A DNA stretch of 64,000 nucleotides from a virus: the IMG/VR virus record IMGVR_UViG_3300009183_006007, positions 11,197 through 75,196 of that record. One strand, written 5' to 3'. Within the stretch, counting starts at the first letter, position 1, and each line of letters starts with the position of its first letter. This document shows, one piece after another, positions 10,143 through 63,973 of this stretch. The notes beneath the pieces were generated by a model. The model worked only from the letters and a program-made list of their open reading frames with translations. It was not told the DNA's origin and made no database searches. The translations under genes and the position numbers were made by a program.

Positions 10143-11474
10143 TTAATTATCATCAGATTCTTCCGGATCTTGAAAGAACAAGGTTTTATCCTTTGTTTGT
10201 AACCATTCTCTAGATAGATTTAATCTCTTAGTTAAATCTCTTAACCAAGTCTTAGCCATTTCATATGGTTCACATCTTTGTAATGATTTCTCATATCTTT
10301 CCATACCACCATAGATTTTAAGAATATCTTCTTTAGATAACTTTCTCATATCATCAGCTTTAACCATAGCCATTACAAAACTAAAGTTTGTGTTATCTTT
10401 TTCCTGTAAGGCATAATCTTTTCTAGAAATACCAGAATTGATATATTGTTTATAAGCCTTTTCAATATCTACTGATTTATCAGTTAAAGCCTTTTTCACA
10501 ATAGAAATAATTTTGTTAATTCTAATATGTGCTTCTTTTTCATCTTCTGGAACTTGTCCTAAGATATCATCTATCTTATCATCTAAGATATAACCAATAA
10601 TAATATGTTCTCTATATAAGTCTTCGGTAAGTAAACCATGACGTTCACAATACCAAGGAGTCTTCAACTTAAAGAAGAAGTCTCTTCCGTGTTCATCTTC
10701 ACAAGTAACAATTGAACCTTCTTTATCTACTTGAGTTGCAGTTAGTTCAATTAACTTGTCTAAGTCATGAATTTCATCTTCAAATGGAGCAACTCTAATA
10801 GAGCCAACTTTATCTAAGTGGTCTCTAATATCAATATGTTTACCAGTAACATTATCTCTTAATCTTAATAAGATTAATTCTTCACTTGGGTATCTTAGAA
10901 CAATACGATTGTTTGGTGCCACATATTCAAAAATTGGCACGATATTATTATTCAAAGCCCAATCAACTAAAGATTTAACTTCTTTATTAGTTTTATAAAC
11001 TCTGTTTATACCATCAGCTTGGTCATTATCAAATCCCATTTTGGATTTACCAATAACTTTACCATTTGGTAGTTTAATGAATGAAGCAATAGAACCATCT
11101 TCTTTGTTATTTACAAATTTGATTTTATAGTTCTTAACAACTGAATATAAAGAGTCAGGTACTTGATTTAAGTTAAAGAACTTTTCAAGTAAAACATATC
11201 TATTGAATAGGGAACCATCTTCATTAAAAACGAAAGTTAGTCCTCTCATTTCATAACCTTTCAATTCTGGTTTATCAGGAATAGGGTTAGAGAAGTCTTT
11301 GTATTGAGCAAGACGATAATTAAACACAGATACATTAAATCCATCAACAACCATCTTAGATTCATAAAATGGTGCTTCCTCACCTGAACATAACTCTACG
11401 GCTTGTTCATATGTTGGGATAGCGTTTATTGAAACACTTTCCTTTATAAACTCTGTATATCTAAATAATTTCAT
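10143..11474 (-). CDS. RNA ligase 1 (T4 RnlA family)
   Basis: FNYRLA, EMRGLTF, KFFNLNQ, motif I KEDGS, FEYVAPNNRIV, EG and FKLKTPWY. Confidence 0.9.
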   Translation of the reverse strand: MKLFRYTEFIKESVSINAIPTYEQAVELCSGEEAPFYESKMVVDGFNVSVFNYRLAQYKDFSNPIPDKPELKGYEMRGLTFVFNEDGSLFNRYVLLEKFFNLNQVPDSLYSVVKNYKIKFVNNKEDGSIASFIKLPNGKVIGKSKMGFDNDQADGINRVYKTNKEVKSLVDWALNNNIVPIFEYVAPNNRIVLRYPSEELILLRLRDNVTGKHIDIRDHLDKVGSIRVAPFEDEIHDLDKLIELTATQVDKEGSIVTCEDEHGRDFFFKLKTPWYCERHGLLTEDLYREHIIIGYILDDKIDDILGQVPEDEKEAHIRINKIISIVKKALTDKSVDIEKAYKQYINSGISRKDYALQEKDNTNFSFVMAMVKADDMRKLSKEDILKIYGGMERYEKSLQRCEPYEMAKTWLRDLTKRLNLSREWLQTKDKTLFFQDPEESDDN

Positions 11475-52047: not shown

Positions 52048-52530
52048 TTAGATTTTATTGGAAAGGTTTTTATTACTGAATTGTTTTATTCCAGTAACTT
52101 CAATTATAACTATATTTTTGATATAATCAGGAATTACAACTTCAAAATCTTGACTAGGTATTTCAATTTCGGCAATAATTAAATGACCTTCAAATTTATC
52201 AACTTCCCATTTTAATTTACCTTGTGGATAGATACATCTTTTTTTAGATATACTTCTAGATTCTACTTCTTCTTTTTTACAATTCTCAACAAATAGGTTA
52301 AACTCCTCTTTTGTTAGAGGATGTTCATCTTCCATATTCACACCTTTTGAAATTGTTGTTTTGATGGTATGTATATAATACTTACCTTTAATATTAGAGT
52401 TACAATATCGAGCTCGTTCCCAAATACCTTCTTGATTTTTAAAATACCATTGTTCAATTTTAATAACCTCAGTTGGTTTTACATCTGGCATTGATTTGAG
52501 TAAAAATTTTCTCTCTATTTCTAATTCCAT
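52048..52530 (-). CDS. CYTH-domain triphosphate tunnel metalloenzyme
   Basis: EIERKFL, ISKKR, WEVD and AEIE motifs. Confidence 0.88.
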   Translation of the reverse strand: MELEIERKFLLKSMPDVKPTEVIKIEQWYFKNQEGIWERARYCNSNIKGKYYIHTIKTTISKGVNMEDEHPLTKEEFNLFVENCKKEEVESRSISKKRCIYPQGKLKWEVDKFEGHLIIAEIEIPSQDFEVVIPDYIKNIVIIEVTGIKQFSNKNLSNKI

Positions 52531-52547
52531 TTATTATACTATTTATC

Positions 52548-53003
52548 TTATTTTTTAATGAATCTTTCGACTCTTTCAAAGTACGAAGATATGAATAAAA
52601 GTCCAATTGTTAAAATAATTGGCATTAATACTGTACCCATTCCACATAAAATACCTATTCCTGATATTACCCATATAAATGCTGCTGTTGTTACACCAAT
52701 TATCTTATCATCGTGTTTCATAATAACACCACCTCCTAAAAATCCTATACCTGTTACGATATTTGATATTATTCTTGTTGGATCACCACCTCCATAATAT
52801 TTAGATGCCAAAAAAGATGCAATTGTAAAAATACAAGATCCAACACATATTAAAACAATAGTTCTAAGTCCAGCTACTTTATTTTTAAGTTCTCTTTCCC
52901 ATCCGATAATTAATCCACATATGGTTGCTATGAGTATTTTTGGAAGAATAAATTTCATTAATTTAATTTCATATCCAAAGTTTAATATTTCTAATAATTT
53001 CAT
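52548..53003 (-). CDS. MgtC/SapB-family membrane protein
   Basis: IGWERE, AGLRT, DPTRI, GIGFLGGG and GVTTAA motifs. Confidence 0.92.
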   Translation of the reverse strand: MKLLEILNFGYEIKLMKFILPKILIATICGLIIGWERELKNKVAGLRTIVLICVGSCIFTIASFLASKYYGGGDPTRIISNIVTGIGFLGGGVIMKHDDKIIGVTTAAFIWVISGIGILCGMGTVLMPIILTIGLLFISSYFERVERFIKK

Positions 53004-53050: not shown

Positions 53051-53078
53051 AAAAAAAACCCAGTCATTGACTGGGTTT
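53051..53078 (-). terminator. terminator after the tRNA cassette (ACCCAGTC family)
   Basis: AAACCCAGTC-ATT-GACTGGGTTT. Confidence 0.85.
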
Positions 53079-53082
53079 GTTG

Positions 53083-53183
53083 TAGCCCGTAGAGGATTCG
53101 AACACTCTGTTACCTAACCGAAAAGTTAGACGTCCTAAACAGATAAATCTGTTTCCCTTACGGGTCCTGTAGACGAACGGGCC
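53083..53183 (-). tRNA. atypical tRNA-Glu-like gene with D-loop insertion and enlarged anticodon arm
   Basis: GGCCCGT/ACGGGCT acceptor, TCGTCTA..AGGAC D arm, GTTCGAATC T loop; 101 nt. Confidence 0.7.
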
Positions 53184-53190
53184 ATTTAGT

Positions 53191-53250
53191 GTGGAGTTTG
53201 GTACCCACCCTGTCTTTGACAGACCCCCTAATTAAAGGGAAGTTAACCAC
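53191..53250 (-). ncRNA. candidate structured RNA between two tRNAs
   Basis: GC-rich; GTGG/CCAC closing helix with TTCCCT/AGGGGG and CTGTC/GACAG hairpins. Confidence 0.4.
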
Positions 53251-53263
53251 TACGAAAACTTTG

Positions 53264-53335
53264 TAGCGGGGGAAGGATTCGAACCTCCGACCTCTAGGTT
53301 ATGAGCCTAGCGAGCTACCCCTGCTCTACCCCACA
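53264..53335 (-). tRNA. tRNA-Met(CAT), initiator-like
   Basis: Cloverleaf; CTAGG-CTCATAA-CCTAG anticodon arm; unpaired T1:T72. Confidence 0.92.
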
Positions 53336-53411
53336 ATGTTTTTAATATATTTTCGTTTTCAGTTTTTGTTTAATCATTTCTGATTTCTTTTACAAATATA
53401 AGAAGACTTTT

Positions 53412-53825
53412 TTAATCTACCAAATTTTTTCGTAAAATTTCTTTACAAGTTTCTTTCCACTCAAAATGTTCTACATTAACTGGAAAACATTTAACCTCAG
53501 TGGAACGATTACTTTCTAATATATCCATTAACTCAATATCATCATCATCTAAATGAAAAATAAATCCTTTACCTTCTAAAAATAAAGATTTAGATTCCAT
53601 ATTTGTAAAGTGAATATTTTCTACTTTAATACCACAATCTTTAGCAACATCAAATAGTTTTTGATTTTGTCCTTCTATCCAATGCCATTTCTTATCCTTA
53701 GCAGCTTCGTCACTAAATCGAGAAGTAACTATCCAAACTTCATATCCTTCACTCACCAAATCCTTGGCAAGTTTCTGGACATCTTTTCGAGATAATGTGC
53801 CATCAAAATCAAAACTTACTTTCAT
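53412..53825 (-). CDS. HAD-superfamily phosphatase
   Basis: SFDFDGTL, IVTSR, K and HLDDD motifs. Confidence 0.85.
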   Translation of the reverse strand: MKVSFDFDGTLSRKDVQKLAKDLVSEGYEVWIVTSRFSDEAAKDKKWHWIEGQNQKLFDVAKDCGIKVENIHFTNMESKSLFLEGKGFIFHLDDDDIELMDILESNRSTEVKCFPVNVEHFEWKETCKEILRKNLVD

Positions 53826-55778: not shown

Positions 55779-56264
55779 TTATAGTGAAATTACTTTATTG
55801 AAACCTTCATCATGTGTTATTGGTTGATAAGAGGAAATCATAGACTTAACAATTTTCATCGGAAGGTCTTTATTTTCTTCTTCAATTCTTTTTTTATTTC
55901 GTCTTTCATATTCATCATCTGATAAAATAGGAAAAATAACACCTAACTTATAATAGTCGTCAGTGAAATAATTTAGATTTTGTTTTCTTCTTTTAGAAGC
56001 CATGTGTGTCATATCAACAATCACATTTTTCTTTTCTTTATTAGCATCTAAAAATCTTTGAGATAAAACTCTATCTACTTCTTTTTGGTCTACATTGTTA
56101 AATGCGGCTGTATAGTCTCTTGAACCATATACTTCCATAACAATTTCATCACGACTAATTACTTCAGTCGTTGGAAAGTTTTCTCTAATCCAAGTTGATT
56201 TACCTGACAATGGCGGTCCAACAAGTATAATAACAAAAGGTTCTTTTAAGTGTTTAAGATTCAT
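55779..56264 (-). CDS. polynucleotide-kinase-like P-loop kinase (AAA_33)
   Basis: GPPLSGKSTW, ISRDEI, IVDMT..R and EGF motifs. Confidence 0.85.
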   Translation of the reverse strand: MNLKHLKEPFVIILVGPPLSGKSTWIRENFPTTEVISRDEIVMEVYGSRDYTAAFNNVDQKEVDRVLSQRFLDANKEKKNVIVDMTHMASKRRKQNLNYFTDDYYKLGVIFPILSDDEYERRNKKRIEEENKDLPMKIVKSMISSYQPITHDEGFNKVISL

Positions 56265-56265
56265 A

Positions 56266-56898
56266 TTAAATTGATTGAACTGATTTTTTAATTATTTCTG
56301 CGTGGTCAAATGCCATATCAACGGTTACATCACCATCATAACTTACATCGTTCCAAGTACATTCTGTAGCATCATCACCAGCTATAGCTTCAGGAATTTC
56401 ATCAAGAATAGTAGCGAAAGCATAACTAACACAATTTTTACTTCGTGGGTCACGATAAGGTTTATCAAAAACACCAACCGGAGTCAAATATCCACTTTTA
56501 TTACTTGATGTTAAATTCATACCCTTTAAAACAATACCTGTTTCTTCTTCTAACTCACGGACTGCTGCATCTATTGGATGTTCTCCCTCATCGATGTTAC
56601 CACCTGGATTAGCCCACATACCAACAAATGGTGGTCGACCTCTTTTAATAGAAAGTACTTTGTAATTTGTCCCAGTATCTACTAAAACAATTAAATCAAC
56701 ACAAGACATTCCTGTATCAACGATTTCATTATCAACAACTCTTAAAATATAAGAGTATCCTATAGTTAATTTGTTTTCTGATTTATTAAAGAAGTTACCA
56801 AAGTTGGTATAAACTATATTCTCTTTAATATCAAGAACCTTCAAGGGTCCTATCCACTCAGATGTGTTGAATTGATTAAATTTTTTTATAGTCGCCAT
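56266..56898 (-). CDS. Nudix hydrolase
   Basis: PGGNIDEGE..AAVRELEEETG, RDPR, AGDDA and AFDH motifs. Confidence 0.92.
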   Translation of the reverse strand: MATIKKFNQFNTSEWIGPLKVLDIKENIVYTNFGNFFNKSENKLTIGYSYILRVVDNEIVDTGMSCVDLIVLVDTGTNYKVLSIKRGRPPFVGMWANPGGNIDEGEHPIDAAVRELEEETGIVLKGMNLTSSNKSGYLTPVGVFDKPYRDPRSKNCVSYAFATILDEIPEAIAGDDATECTWNDVSYDGDVTVDMAFDHAEIIKKSVQSI

Positions 56899-59876: not shown

Positions 59877-60295
59877 ACTGCTACTCCATTTAAAATTCCA
59901 TTATGAAAATATCTAAAATCAGACAAGTCATAATCTTCTACATTTTTAAGATAACTATTAATAGATCCAATAATGTTGTATCTACCAGATGTGTTATCTG
60001 TGTGAGCATACCAACTAGGAAATTTCTTATTGTGATCTAAACAATAATTAATTAAATAATCAGCAGCTGTTTTACCTGTGTACTCTACACCATTTTTATA
60101 ACAAGCCAAGTCATGGTCAAATGAAACCAAGTCAATATCATCAAAATGATTGTTGATAATATCAACAAATTCAAAATAATCTCGAGCAATAACCCACTTA
60201 TCTTCTGAAGAATAAGCACTTCCTAATCCTTTACCAGATTTGTGTGCCATATCTGGAGTTCTGATATCATCTAAAAAAAGATTAATATTTTTCAT
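59873..60295 (-). CDS. cyclic-phosphate-processing receiver-domain protein
   Basis: LFLDDIRTP, VSFDHDL, TG and HTDN motifs. Confidence 0.78.
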   Translation of the reverse strand: MKNINLFLDDIRTPDMAHKSGKGLGSAYSSEDKWVIARDYFEFVDIINNHFDDIDLVSFDHDLACYKNGVEYTGKTAADYLINYCLDHNKKFPSWYAHTDNTSGRYNIIGSINSYLKNVEDYDLSDFRYFHNGILNGVAV

Positions 60296-61070
60296 ATCTT
60301 ATAATATTTGTTTTATTCTTATTAGTTCCATTTAACATCATTAATAAAGTGGTTTCCTTTATATTAATTGACTTACAAACATCTTTTAGTTTGTTGAAAG
60401 TTTCTCCAGTTGTGGTATTTTTATAAATGAAATTTGTATGTTTTGATGATTTTTTTATTTTTTTATAATTTTTGTTGATATCATAAGAATCTATAAAAGA
60501 CCAATAAAATCCACCTGCCGAATTTAGAACATTTCTACAACAAGCTGAAATATTTTGTCTACTTATACTTGTACTTTCCTCAGCTTCTTTAATTGAATTA
60601 AATTTATTTAAAATGATACCATCTTCGGATATTTGAAGAACCTTCTTATATTGAGATTCTATTATTTTCAAATGTGCCTCTTTACTTCTTTTATTACCAA
60701 TGTGTGATATTTTCAAATTTTCTATGTGTTCATCACTGAACTTCATTCCAAGATTAGTATCACATACTATTCTTTTATTATATCCATACTTAGTATCATT
60801 AGCCTTATAGAATTTTATATTAAACTCTTCCCTTTCTTTTATTAGGTTCTTATCAATAAATTTTAAATCTTCTAATATTTCAAATTTGAAATTTGAAATT
60901 CCATACTTATTAAATGATGATTGTAAATGTTTATTAAAATGTATATTTCCTATTAATAGTCTTTTATGTGTTGAAAATCTATTCATTATAGATATTGAAC
61001 TACCTATATAAACTTTATTATTAATTAAATTTTCTATTTTATAAATTCCTATTATTTTTTTATACGGCAT
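60282..61070 (-). CDS. GIY-YIG homing endonuclease with NUMOD-type repeats
   Basis: GIYKIEN..KVYIGSS, R..H, E and GYN motifs; FNSIKEA..ISACC..SAGGFYW. Confidence 0.9.
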   Translation of the reverse strand: MPYKKIIGIYKIENLINNKVYIGSSISIMNRFSTHKRLLIGNIHFNKHLQSSFNKYGISNFKFEILEDLKFIDKNLIKEREEFNIKFYKANDTKYGYNKRIVCDTNLGMKFSDEHIENLKISHIGNKRSKEAHLKIIESQYKKVLQISEDGIILNKFNSIKEAEESTSISRQNISACCRNVLNSAGGFYWSFIDSYDINKNYKKIKKSSKHTNFIYKNTTTGETFNKLKDVCKSINIKETTLLMMLNGTNKNKTNIIRYEKY

Positions 61071-61858: not shown

Positions 61859-62242
61859 ATGGAACAAAAGAAAATGCCTGATAGTTTTGTAGAAAATCGA
61901 TTATCTAAAAGATATCCAACAGAAGTTGGTGCTCCAAAGTTTGAACCTGATAATATTTCACTTTTCAAAATTGAGAAAACAGCAAAAGTTAAAAAATACT
62001 ATTCGTCAAAATTTGAAGAAATGACAAAAGAGTATGAAAATCTAATGTCTGAAATTCAAGTTAATGAAAGACTTTATATGGCTTCTCATAATTTCGAACC
62101 AATCTCCGGTGAAATTTATCATTTATATAAAAAGGAATCTGGTGAAGAATTCCTTTCTTTAATATCTCCAGACCAATGGAAGAGATTTGAGTTTATTGGC
62201 TCTTATAGATTTTTATCTGATGGAAGATGGGTTGGAATTTAA
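61859..62242 (+). CDS. DUF2452-like protein
   Basis: YPTEVGAPKF, FEPISGEIYHLY and FLSLISPDQW motifs. Confidence 0.7.
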   Translation: MEQKKMPDSFVENRLSKRYPTEVGAPKFEPDNISLFKIEKTAKVKKYYSSKFEEMTKEYENLMSEIQVNERLYMASHNFEPISGEIYHLYKKESGEEFLSLISPDQWKRFEFIGSYRFLSDGRWVGI

Positions 62243-63873
62243 CCTACCCATCCTTCTTTCAAACTTACCGTTTTATTGAAACTTTTACCGTCTTTATCTA
62301 AAATATAATAACCCATTCTCATCATTTGAACTGGTTCCTTTACATTCAAAACGTGTGGTTCAAAGATTGCCTTATCATTAATTATAAGTGAATCTGGGTT
62401 GATATAATTGATAAAATCATCTTCATTTTTATCTGGTGACTCATCACTAAATAATTTATCATATTCATTTACATTCATTCTAACTCCGTGTTCAACAGAT
62501 ACCCAATGAATAGTTCCTTTAATCTTTCTTTCAAAAGTCATACCTGATCTTGTTAAAGGATCATAAGTACATCTAATTTCAATAACTTCCCCACTATCAT
62601 TCTTGATAACTTCATTCGCTTTAATAACATAAGCACCTTTCAATCTTACTTCACCACCCAACTTTAATCTGTGGAATTTGTTATTAGCTTCTTCTCTGAA
62701 ATCTTCTGATTCAATAAATAATTCACCACTAAAAGGAATCATTCTAGTACCGACACTTTCATCACCAGGATTGTTTTCAACTTCAACCATTTCAGTTCCA
62801 TTATCCCAATTAGTAATAACTAACTTAACAGGATTCATTACACCCATCAATCTATTAGCAACTACATTCAAATCAGTTCTCAAACATTCTTCTAAAAGCA
62901 AGTAAGAAACAACTGACTCTTTTCTGGTAACAGAAATTCTATCACAAAAATCTTTAATAGCATTTGGTGTGAAACCTCTTCTTCTTAAACCAGAAATAGT
63001 TGGCATTCTTGGATCATCCCATCCAGTAACATAACCTTCTTCAACTAATCTTTTTAATTTTCTCTTTGACATAACCGTATAGTCAATGTTCAAACGAGCA
63101 AACTCAGTTTCTTCTGGTAAAGGATTCTCTAAATCACAATTTTCTAACACCCACATATATAAAGGTCTATGAACTTCAAATTCTAAAGTACATAAAGAAT
63201 CAGTAATACCTTCTTTATAATCAGAAAGTGGATGAGCAAAGTCATACATTGGATAAATCTTCCAAGTGTCACCAGTTCTGTGATGTGACTTAGATATGAT
63301 TCTATAAATAACTGGATCTCTTAAAATCATATTTGAGGAAGTCATATCAATATTAGCTCTCAAGATTTTAGAACCTTCAACAAATTCACCTAATCTCATT
63401 CTATTAAATAAGTCTAAGTTTTCTTCTATACTTCTAGATTTATAAGGTGAGTCTTTACCAACTGAAGTAGGAGTTCCTTTTAAGTTAGCAATTTCTTCAG
63501 AGGTTGAATCATCAACATAAGCTAATCCTTTCTTAATTAAAGTAACAGCACATTCATAAAGAAAATCAAAATAATCAGATGTGTATCTGATTTCACTTGG
63601 CGTATAACCAAGCCACTTGATATCTTCAATCATTGAATCTACAAACTCTTTTCTTTCAGTTGTTGGATTTGTATCATCAAACCTTAACACACATGGAGCA
63701 TTATACTTTTCTGCTAATCCAAAATTTAATATAATGGATTTAGCGTGACCTAAGTGAAGACCACCGACAACTCTACCATCGTTTAGTATAGCCCCATTTG
63801 GTTCTGGTGGAAAACGAAGTTTTAACTTATCAAGATTTCCTTTTTCTAATATTTTTTCTTCTATGAAATTCAT
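62239..63873 (-). CDS. glnS: glutamine--tRNA ligase
   Basis: RFPPEPNG..LHLGHAKS, RFDDTNP, IYPMYDFAH, CTLEF, MSKRKL and GWDDPRMPT motifs. Confidence 0.96.
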   Translation of the reverse strand: MNFIEEKILEKGNLDKLKLRFPPEPNGAILNDGRVVGGLHLGHAKSIILNFGLAEKYNAPCVLRFDDTNPTTERKEFVDSMIEDIKWLGYTPSEIRYTSDYFDFLYECAVTLIKKGLAYVDDSTSEEIANLKGTPTSVGKDSPYKSRSIEENLDLFNRMRLGEFVEGSKILRANIDMTSSNMILRDPVIYRIISKSHHRTGDTWKIYPMYDFAHPLSDYKEGITDSLCTLEFEVHRPLYMWVLENCDLENPLPEETEFARLNIDYTVMSKRKLKRLVEEGYVTGWDDPRMPTISGLRRRGFTPNAIKDFCDRISVTRKESVVSYLLLEECLRTDLNVVANRLMGVMNPVKLVITNWDNGTEMVEVENNPGDESVGTRMIPFSGELFIESEDFREEANNKFHRLKLGGEVRLKGAYVIKANEVIKNDSGEVIEIRCTYDPLTRSGMTFERKIKGTIHWVSVEHGVRMNVNEYDKLFSDESPDKNEDDFINYINPDSLIINDKAIFEPHVLNVKEPVQMMRMGYYILDKDGKSFNKTVSLKEGWVG

Positions 63874-63901: not shown

Positions 63902-63973
63902 TTGTCTCGCCAGGATTCGAACCTGGACTCTTTCCGTTCAAAGCGGCTTGTGTTGCCCTTACACCACGAGACA
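63902..63973 (-). tRNA. tRNA-Gln(TTG)
   Basis: TGTCTCG/CGAGACA acceptor, CCG-CTTTGAA-CGG anticodon arm, CCAGG-TTCGAAT-CCTGG T arm. Confidence 0.88.

Follow-up and report, generated by a model that had tools for sequence, protein, structure and literature searches.

Non-decoding, tRNA-shaped RNAs that are processed and stable include the species 1 and 2 RNAs of phage T4, a tRNA-like RNA of phage T5 and the tRNA-like domain of YrlA, the phage examples lying in tRNA clusters; we know of none of this type that consists of a tRNA-Glu body with a D-loop expansion arm. An extra helical arm projecting from the tRNA core is found in class II tRNAs (Leu, Ser, Tyr), where it occupies positions 44-48. 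Van den Berg et al. (2023, PMC10264068) report phage tRNAs whose anticodon-loop mutations let them evade the anticodon nucleases of the host. ‘Enigmatic’ introns in the tRNA genes of Lak megaphages were predicted by tRNAscan with eukaryote settings, their position in the tRNA and their processing not being stated (Devoto et al. 2019, PMC6784885). The GOLLD RNA (RF02032) occurs within tRNA islands, downstream of tRNA-Met in env-38 and sometimes with embedded tRNAs (10.1101/2024.12.08.627333; PMC12990946). Here we describe P2, a tRNA-Glu-derived RNA of 101 nucleotides (nt) on the minus strand at 53083..53183 of a 64,000-nt stretch of viral DNA (the window; positions 11,197 to 75,196 of IMG/VR record IMGVR_UViG_3300009183_006007), characterized through its sequence, fold, homologues and a covariance model. 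The 75-kb record represents about 17% of a genome (CheckV), so its source is a jumbo phage, and its relatives are contigs of 260-635 kb.

P2 is almost certainly a real, selected structured RNA, and it is probably not an ordinary decoder. We read it as a functional, conserved and stable non-decoding mimic of tRNA-Glu, a reading to which we give a probability of roughly 0.55.

P2 can be likened to the T4, T5 and YrlA RNAs by general description. With class II tRNAs it has in common a tRNA body carrying an extra helical arm, but its arm sits at D-loop position 20 and consists of two helices. Like the nuclease-evading phage tRNAs, P2 derives from a tRNA, is encoded by a phage and has an anticodon loop that deviates from that of the host, and RNA end-repair genes lie near it; those tRNAs are reported to decode and to be otherwise normal with 7-nt loops (PMC10264068), whereas P2 combines an altered loop geometry with an extra domain. 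The Lak introns likewise concern large Bacteroidota phages in which tRNA genes are interrupted by conserved extra sequence (PMC6784885), but the extra sequence of P2 lies in the D loop, forms a covarying helix pair and accompanies a non-canonical anticodon arm. At 58 GOLLD loci a P2 homologue and tRNA-Met lie within about 1 kb on the same strand; the GOLLD literature mentions ordinary tRNAs near or inside GOLLD, but neither tRNA-Glu mimics with a D-loop arm nor the small RNA element E described below (10.1101/2024.12.08.627333; PMC12990946). A limited literature search, with the original GOLLD paper and its supplements outside it, found no published description of a tRNA-Glu body with a D-loop arm. 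The P2 family, apparently undescribed, belongs among phage tRNA mimics and conforms neither to canonical tRNAs nor to tRNA introns.

Sequence and predicted fold of P2

The minus-strand sequence from 53183 to 53083 and its tRNA-Glu-like layout agree letter for letter with an earlier annotation made from the sequence alone (hereafter the original prediction). P2 begins with an acceptor stem of 7 base pairs (bp) (GGCCCGU/ACGGGCU, with G1.U72 and discriminator A), followed by U8 and C9, a D stem GUCU/GGAC and, after the D arm, G26. As had been proposed, the acceptor and D stems match tRNA-Glu, being the same as in ordinary phage tRNA-Glu(UUC) genes; the acceptor stem is shared with 71-76-nt phage genes at ten loci. 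The likeness to canonical tRNA-Glu(UUC) (RF00005) extends to the U11-A24 and U13.G22 pairs of the D stem, A46, G18 G19, a 4-nt variable loop (UAAC in P2), the T loop UUCGAAU and the UUC triplet. What sets P2 apart from the canonical form is its D-loop arm of 28 nt (up to 137 nt in relatives), its anticodon stem of 6 bp closed by a hexaloop (alternatively an 8-nt loop) and its bulged T stem.

The D loop amounts to 35 nt, namely ACAGGA, a 28-nt insert and A21. A D-loop insertion had been recognized before, at an estimated 27 nt, and so had its two hairpins, both of which are present immediately after G18 G19 A20. Hairpin 1 (53155..53164, minus strand) is CCC-GUAA-GGG with a GNRA loop. Hairpin 2 (53137..53154, minus strand), the arm that is enlarged in relatives, is AAACAGA-UUUA-UCUGUUU; it is limited to seven pairs with a UUUA loop, because an eighth pair would force an impossible 2-nt loop.

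The anticodon arm (53113..53130, minus strand; UCUAA-CUUUUCGG-UUAGG, loop at 53118-53125) can be read in two ways, as 5 bp with an 8-nt loop or as 6 bp with the hexaloop UUUUCG, which contains UUC. The extra base seen in the original prediction is there, while the 8-nt loop it assumed is only one of two forms, a sixth C-G pair closing UUUUCG being equally possible. The T arm (53091..53108, minus strand) is AGAG(U)G-UUCGAAU-CCUCU, with a canonical loop and, as previously noted, a bulge in its stem (U at 53104). The minimum-energy fold of the RNA is a cloverleaf plus the two D-loop hairpins (-31.7 kcal/mol, z = -2.29), an energy equalled by 4 of 200 shuffled sequences.

Homologues and evidence of selection

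An exact 19-mer of the window P2 matched no viral contig, and homologues were therefore sought with a degenerate pattern of the 5' part. This brought up 46 distinct homologues that carry the insert and are 100-209 nt long, in IMG/VR viral contigs and in metagenome contigs mostly of freshwater lakes, together with ordinary 71-76-nt phage tRNA-Glu(UUC) genes that have an identical acceptor stem. Among deposited phage genomes the sole match was the 635-kb uncultured phage LR745206.1. Searches of the first 89 related loci, fetched via two flanking proteins, with the 101-nt P2 (nhmmer, short-word blastn) returned nothing, E repeats being present there, and megablast of the phage collection found tRNA-Met only, in Cellulophaga phages. 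No P2 was found in bacterial genomes, where two pattern matches fell in high-GC coding sequence of unrelated metagenome-assembled genomes, had no tRNA shape and were taken as chance.

Among 25 sequences of the window class, 97.4% of structure cells are paired (25-52% in slid controls) and 11 pairs are changed on both sides, a number reached in none of 500 shuffles. The middle pair of hairpin 1 is U-A in 15 sequences and C-G in 10, four of the seven pairs of hairpin 2 are changed on both sides, and four of the six anticodon-stem pairs covary, including the sixth, loop-closing pair (C-G in 21, U-A in 3, U-G in 1). Two pairs of the T stem also carry changes on both sides. The acceptor stem is invariant in this set because the search pattern fixed it; among paralogues it does covary. 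Compensation in the two inserted hairpins, the anticodon stem and the T stem is what the original prediction had suggested looking for across related phages, and bears out its argument that a paired insert speaks against random decay. A second class of 13 sequences differs in hairpin 1 (CUCU-UAAA-AGAG), in hairpin 2 and in its loop of 7 nt (CUUUUCA); RNAalifold gives it the same architecture, with compensatory changes in 8 pairs.

Thirty-four members were parsed automatically, and the counts of nucleotides, loops, bulges and insert lengths given here and below refer to them. U8, A14, G18 G19, U11-A24, U13.G22 and A46 are present in all 34. The anticodon loop is CUUUUCGG in 27, CUAUUCGG in 3, UUUUUCGA in 3 and UUUUUCGG in 1; its sequence stays constant while the stems vary, giving a hexaloop U(U/A)UUC(R) in the P2 family. 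The T-stem bulge occurs in 20 members and a GNRA loop on hairpin 1 in 26. In the alignment of the window class, a pyrimidine occupies position 15 as well as its partner, position 48.

The D-loop insert is always at the identical site and measures 28 nt in 18 members, 34 nt in 7, 87 nt in 3, 91 nt in 2 and 137 nt in 2, with lengths of 37 and 52 nt also found. Longer inserts arise where hairpin 2 is enlarged to a long stem with a multi-hairpin junction at its tip. Domains of 87-137 nt (L143:1319-1527 and five further loci) have common small hairpins on the long stem, CCAGYAGUUGG and GGGAGCRUCACCC or CCAAGGUGG, and the 137-nt form folds as a cloverleaf-like junction nested within the D loop. Judged from these alignments, the three non-canonical features of P2, namely the D-loop arm, the 6-bp anticodon stem with its hexaloop and the often bulged T stem, are selected.

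Detection by standard tools and class assignment

The P2 family escapes standard tRNA and Rfam annotation. ARAGORN makes no call on P2 and Rfam model RF00005 gives no match even at E ≤ 10, and both find the neighbouring tRNA-Met and a tRNA-Gln in the window. In-silico removal of the insert still yields no ARAGORN call; the program sees the tRNA body only once the insert and the bulged U are both deleted, and it then reports a 2-nt anticodon, equivalent to a 6-nt loop. Weak Rfam matches by E-value (rimP, rnk leader, SpF41 and others) were rejected as chance, since the terminator hairpin accounts for them. A covariance model of the family finds P2 as the sole copy in the window (121.9 bits, E 1e-28), a score that includes the window copy in the training set; relatives outside the model score 61-122 bits.

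Against the definition of a canonical tRNA, P2 lacks a 7-nt anticodon loop on a 5-bp stem, has a D loop of 35 nt where about 7-11 nt is expected, and has the bulged U 53104 where the 5-bp T stem should be uninterrupted. The tertiary nucleotides U8, A14, G18 G19, T54 Psi55 C56 and A58 are all in place and invariant in the alignments. The identity set of E. coli-type tRNA-Glu consists of U11-A24, U13.G22..A46, a missing residue 47 and U34 U35 C36. The D-arm part of this set, with the 4-nt variable loop, is found in 34 of 34 members, and UUC is present, in a non-canonical loop. An 8-nt loop of the frameshift-suppressor kind is formally present if a 5-bp stem is assumed, with its outer positions covarying as a Watson-Crick pair. 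As to a tRNA intron, the GGA|AGGAC flanks of the insert form no helix with 3-nt bulges and no Rfam intron family matched; at 28 nt the insert is too short for a group I core.

The tRNA complement of the relatives bears on the need for P2 in decoding. Four relatives have 23-59 tRNA genes each, and three of them carry P2; the fourth has tandem E copies and no P2 in the stretches searched. The P2-bearing LR745206.1 has 61 tRNAs. In the tRNA clusters fetched from the four relatives, each has 1-3 canonical tRNA-Glu(UUC) genes elsewhere, which argues that P2 is not the ordinary GAA reader of the phage. The main tRNA clusters of three of the four genomes (L195, L198, L201, L202) also contain several 82-89-nt genes for Lys(UUU), Lys(CUU), Glu(UUC) and Gln(UUG) tRNAs with a long, class-II-like extra arm, beside copies of normal length.

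Linkage to GOLLD and tRNA-Glu-like paralogues

Rfam GOLLD (RF02032) matched at 265-292 bits beside the P2 homologue in 6 of 7 loci tested, and a profile built from these matches located GOLLD at 58 of about 72 related loci, in every case on the strand of the homologue and no more than about 1 kb away. Most related loci have tRNA-Met in this module as well. The orders that recur are tRNA-Met, GOLLD, (E), (P1), E, P2; P1, P2, tRNA-Met, GOLLD; P1, tRNA-Met, P2, GOLLD; and P2, GOLLD. The order tRNA-Met, E, P2, without GOLLD, is found in the window and in four other loci.

P1 is a tRNA-Glu-like paralogue of 72-77 nt that has no insert, apart from some copies that do. Its anticodon arm follows the design of P2, with a 6-bp stem and a hexaloop U(U/A)UUC(A/G/C) whose closing pair is C-G, U-A or G-C depending on the member, and ARAGORN labels it ‘tRNA-???’ with a 2- or 4-nt anticodon. 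A further look-alike of P3 type is shaped like a class II tRNA, its variable arm being long and its anticodon loop, of 6 or 8 nt, being closed; it is also reported as ‘tRNA-???’. Class-II look-alikes lie upstream of tRNA-Met and GOLLD (L144:5938-6025, L194:2506-2593, L016:3530-3625 and three further loci), and none was seen in the window. The full set, in the order P3, P1, tRNA-Met, GOLLD, P1, E, P2, is present in LR745206.1.

Proposed role of P2 and alternatives

P2 keeps the acceptor stem and D arm of tRNA-Glu, and both inserted hairpins covary, in support of the remodelled tRNA-Glu of the original prediction. Among the functions suggested there, a nuclease decoy, or more broadly a tRNA-Glu mimic, would fit the sequence evidence best. 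The P2 transcript would be cut out in the manner of a tRNA, by RNase P and 3' processing, and would fold to an L shape with the two inserted hairpins stacked as a rod that projects beside the elbow. Position 20 of tRNA is solvent-facing in known structures, which leaves room for a stack of two hairpins to project at this point with the tRNA fold intact. The closed anticodon loop and the bulged T stem would exclude P2 from normal decoding, and the RNA would work by offering some tRNA-Glu-recognising factor a body like that of tRNA-Glu together with a UUC loop. The likeliest such factor would be a host tRNA-targeting defence nuclease, or alternatively a tRNA-Glu enzyme, with P2 acting as decoy or competitive binder and the D-loop arm serving as a variable handle; in most relatives P2 may act in one pathway with the neighbouring GOLLD. 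We hold the specific decoy or competitive-binder mechanism only tentatively. A decoy is the first choice among mechanisms because genes for RNA end healing lie nearby, which fits a setting of tRNA damage, and because phages have been proposed to escape tRNA nucleases through altered anticodon loops (PMC10264068).

The tRNA is among the most constrained RNA folds, and the P2 family would show a new way in which phages repurpose this scaffold, joining a tRNA-Glu body to a D-loop domain of 28-137 nt and a closed anticodon loop. The family also marks RNA genes that annotation misses entirely in jumbo phages of freshwater Bacteroidota. Its linkage to GOLLD, whose cage structure is solved, supplies concrete candidate partners. 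Should P2 be a decoy for a tRNA-cleaving defence, it would represent an RNA-based counter-defence of new design.

Several observations weigh against a non-decoding mimic. UUC and the following purine are conserved, which would also fit a true 8-nt loop pairing with GAA, and a few known tRNAs tolerate an extra base 5' of the anticodon in decoding. Twelve P2 members have an ordinary 7-nt anticodon loop (CUUUUCA in 11). The RNA contigs described below are weak evidence of expression, because their ends and strand are invisible and DNA carry-over is possible. GOLLD was not found in the 64-kb window or the 75-kb record, which does not show its absence, since the record covers about 17% of the genome. 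A test for kissing between the hexaloop and GOLLD, comparing P1 loop position 2 (U/A) with every column in the 3' domain of GOLLD and searching full-length GOLLD for complementary k-mers, found no complementary co-variation.

The alternative that survives best, though we think it unlikely, is that P2 is still a working tRNA-Glu, either a nuclease-resistant GAA isoacceptor or a +1 frameshift or quadruplet (GAAA) decoder with the 8-nt loop C-U-U-UUC-R-G. It would account for the conservation of UUC plus purine in both paralogue families, for the retention of all elbow nucleotides and of the tRNA-Glu identity nucleotides of the D arm, and for an acceptor stem identical to that of ordinary phage tRNA-Glu(UUC). 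The extra-arm Lys, Glu and Gln tRNAs of relatives are still called by ARAGORN, and nuclease-evading phage tRNAs with anticodon-loop changes have been published (PMC10264068). Yet positions 32 and 38 covary as a Watson-Crick pair, which lengthens the stem to 6 bp and reduces the loop to 6 nt; 20 of 34 members have the T-stem bulge, both 15-48 positions are pyrimidines in the window class, and D-loop domains of up to 137 nt would need to pass through the ribosome. Canonical tRNA-Glu genes, moreover, are present in the same genomes. The frameshift suppressor put forward in the original prediction is thus weakened by the covarying loop-closing pair, the frequent T-stem bulge and the 1-3 normal tRNA-Glu genes of relatives.

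More doubtful is a role of P2, P1 and E as dedicated partners of the GOLLD nanocage, as cargo, assembly cofactors or adaptors that would dock through the GNRA-capped arm or the UUC hexaloop. In that case the window operon, which has no GOLLD, would represent a minimal form or one that acts in trans. If P2, P1 and E did turn out to be GOLLD partners, the module would provide a first handle on what GOLLD does.

We consider it improbable that P2 is mainly a processing or stabilising device, which would recruit RNase P and RNase Z for cleavage of a polycistronic RNA containing tRNA-Met, E and, in relatives, GOLLD, or would use the tRNA scaffold to stabilise and display the D-loop arm as the true payload. 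The RNA genes do form a tight string, always on the same strand and with very short spacers, and the D-loop arm is the most variable and most expandable part of the molecule; a contig from an RNA library that ends 3 nt into the 5' end of P2 is a weak further point in favour. Punctuation alone, however, would call for neither a hexaloop that stays invariant while its stem covaries freely nor the tRNA-Glu D-arm set, and in three loci (L138, L145, L172) P2 is the first gene after its own promoter, so that no upstream RNA is there to be processed.

Excision of the 28-nt insert, with the halves rejoined by phage RNA repair enzymes (RNA ligase, kinase/phosphatase) into an RNA of about 73 nt, is very improbable. 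Covariation of the insert helices and conservation of the GNRA loop type point to a role in the mature RNA, and this structural selection, together with growth to 137 nt through extension of a single hairpin whose site never shifts and the lack of a bulge-helix-bulge motif at the junctions or of a group I core, weakens the excision suggested in the original prediction. Even after in-silico removal of the insert the RNA is no standard tRNA. No rejoined form appears among the RNA-library contigs, whose coverage could not have revealed one. What speaks for excision is the presence of RNA end-healing genes nearby, of insert-less paralogues with the same body, and of the ‘enigmatic introns’ reported in megaphage tRNA genes (PMC6784885). 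A decaying tRNA-Glu pseudogene, as the failure of tRNA finders and three defects in one RNA might suggest, is excluded for practical purposes by covariation among the 46 distinct homologues, with compensation in every variable helix, invariant loops and a conserved promoter and terminator.

The RNA operon and its possible transcription

P2 is apparently the last of three RNA genes in a transcription unit that comprises a promoter-like site, tRNA-Met, E, P2 and a terminator. The promoter-like site (53393..53424, minus strand), found by pattern match about 58 nt upstream of tRNA-Met, is of Bacteroidota type (TTTG-N20-TATATTTG) and, from its sequence, may well function as a promoter. Its resemblance to the Bacteroidota -33/-7 consensus hints at the host phylum, and a near-identical string (TTTGGTAGATTAAAAAAG...TA..TTTG) immediately precedes the homologous RNA in four loci (L138, L139, L145, L172). 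tRNA-Met(CAU), the first gene of the operon (53264..53335, minus strand), is called by ARAGORN and matches RF00005 at 61.6 bits. The intrinsic terminator (53056..53078, minus strand), identified by a terminator scan, begins 5 nt past the discriminator of P2 and has a hairpin of 10 pairs (5 G-C) followed by the U run TTTTTATTTA.

Between tRNA-Met and P2 lies E (53191..53261, minus strand), a 71-nt RNA of four hairpins recognized from its conserved copies and their compensatory changes. Its first hairpin pairs AAGUU with AACUU around an invariant 12-nt loop, UUCGUAGUGGUU, and is followed by H1, H2 and H3, which vary in sequence with compensation; among 45 distinct aligned copies, 9 of 21 predicted pairs show compensatory changes. 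E matches no Rfam family. An exact 17-mer of E occurs in 15 viral contigs, and in jumbo-phage contigs E is present singly or as two or three tandem copies, usually between GOLLD or P1 and P2. The closest relatives at the protein level have two or three tandem copies at this site (L016:3680-3925, L017:3690-3850). A search of E for the pairing of a pseudoknotted tRNA-end mimic found none that could be tested, because the candidate loop sequences are invariant.

Evidence from RNA libraries consists of assembled lake metatranscriptome contigs only. A 137-nt contig is an exact match to 53180-53316, running from the 3' part of tRNA-Met through all of E and ending 3 nt into P2, and a second is an exact match to 53307-53506. 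In a third, which comes from a relative, tRNA-Met follows on the 3' half of P2, the order being P2, tRNA-Met. Coverage by the contigs is confined to tRNA-Met, E, the leader and, for the relative, this half of P2; the flanking genes and the P2 insert are uncovered, which is uninformative. They are weakly compatible with transcription of the operon.

Gene neighbourhood in the window

The operon is flanked by a Pnk-like P-loop kinase (AAA_33; 55779-56264, minus strand), a Nudix hydrolase (56266-56898, minus strand) and a weakly CYTH-like protein (52048-52530, minus strand), a set that by its sequence looks like RNA end-healing enzymes. The window and the GOLLD-bearing loci have in common a neighbourhood of CYTH-like protein, 198-aa hydrolase, ClpC-like ATPase, Pnk-like kinase and Nudix protein. 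Scans of the neighbouring proteins with Pfam and NCBIfam revealed no glutamyl-tRNA synthetase or other tRNA-Glu enzyme. The synthetase at 62239-63873 (minus strand) was considered for this role and rejected as a true glutamine-tRNA ligase (glnS equivalog, 631 bits), adjoining tRNA-Gln(UUG) at 63902-63973 (minus strand).

Directly downstream of the operon lies a gene for an MgtC-family membrane protein (52548-53003, minus strand; Pfam PF02308, 126 bits), a position kept in several relatives. An open reading frame at 60282-61070 (minus strand) matches the group I intron endonuclease family TIGR01453 (GIY-YIG, 70 bits) and possibly encodes a free-standing homing endonuclease.

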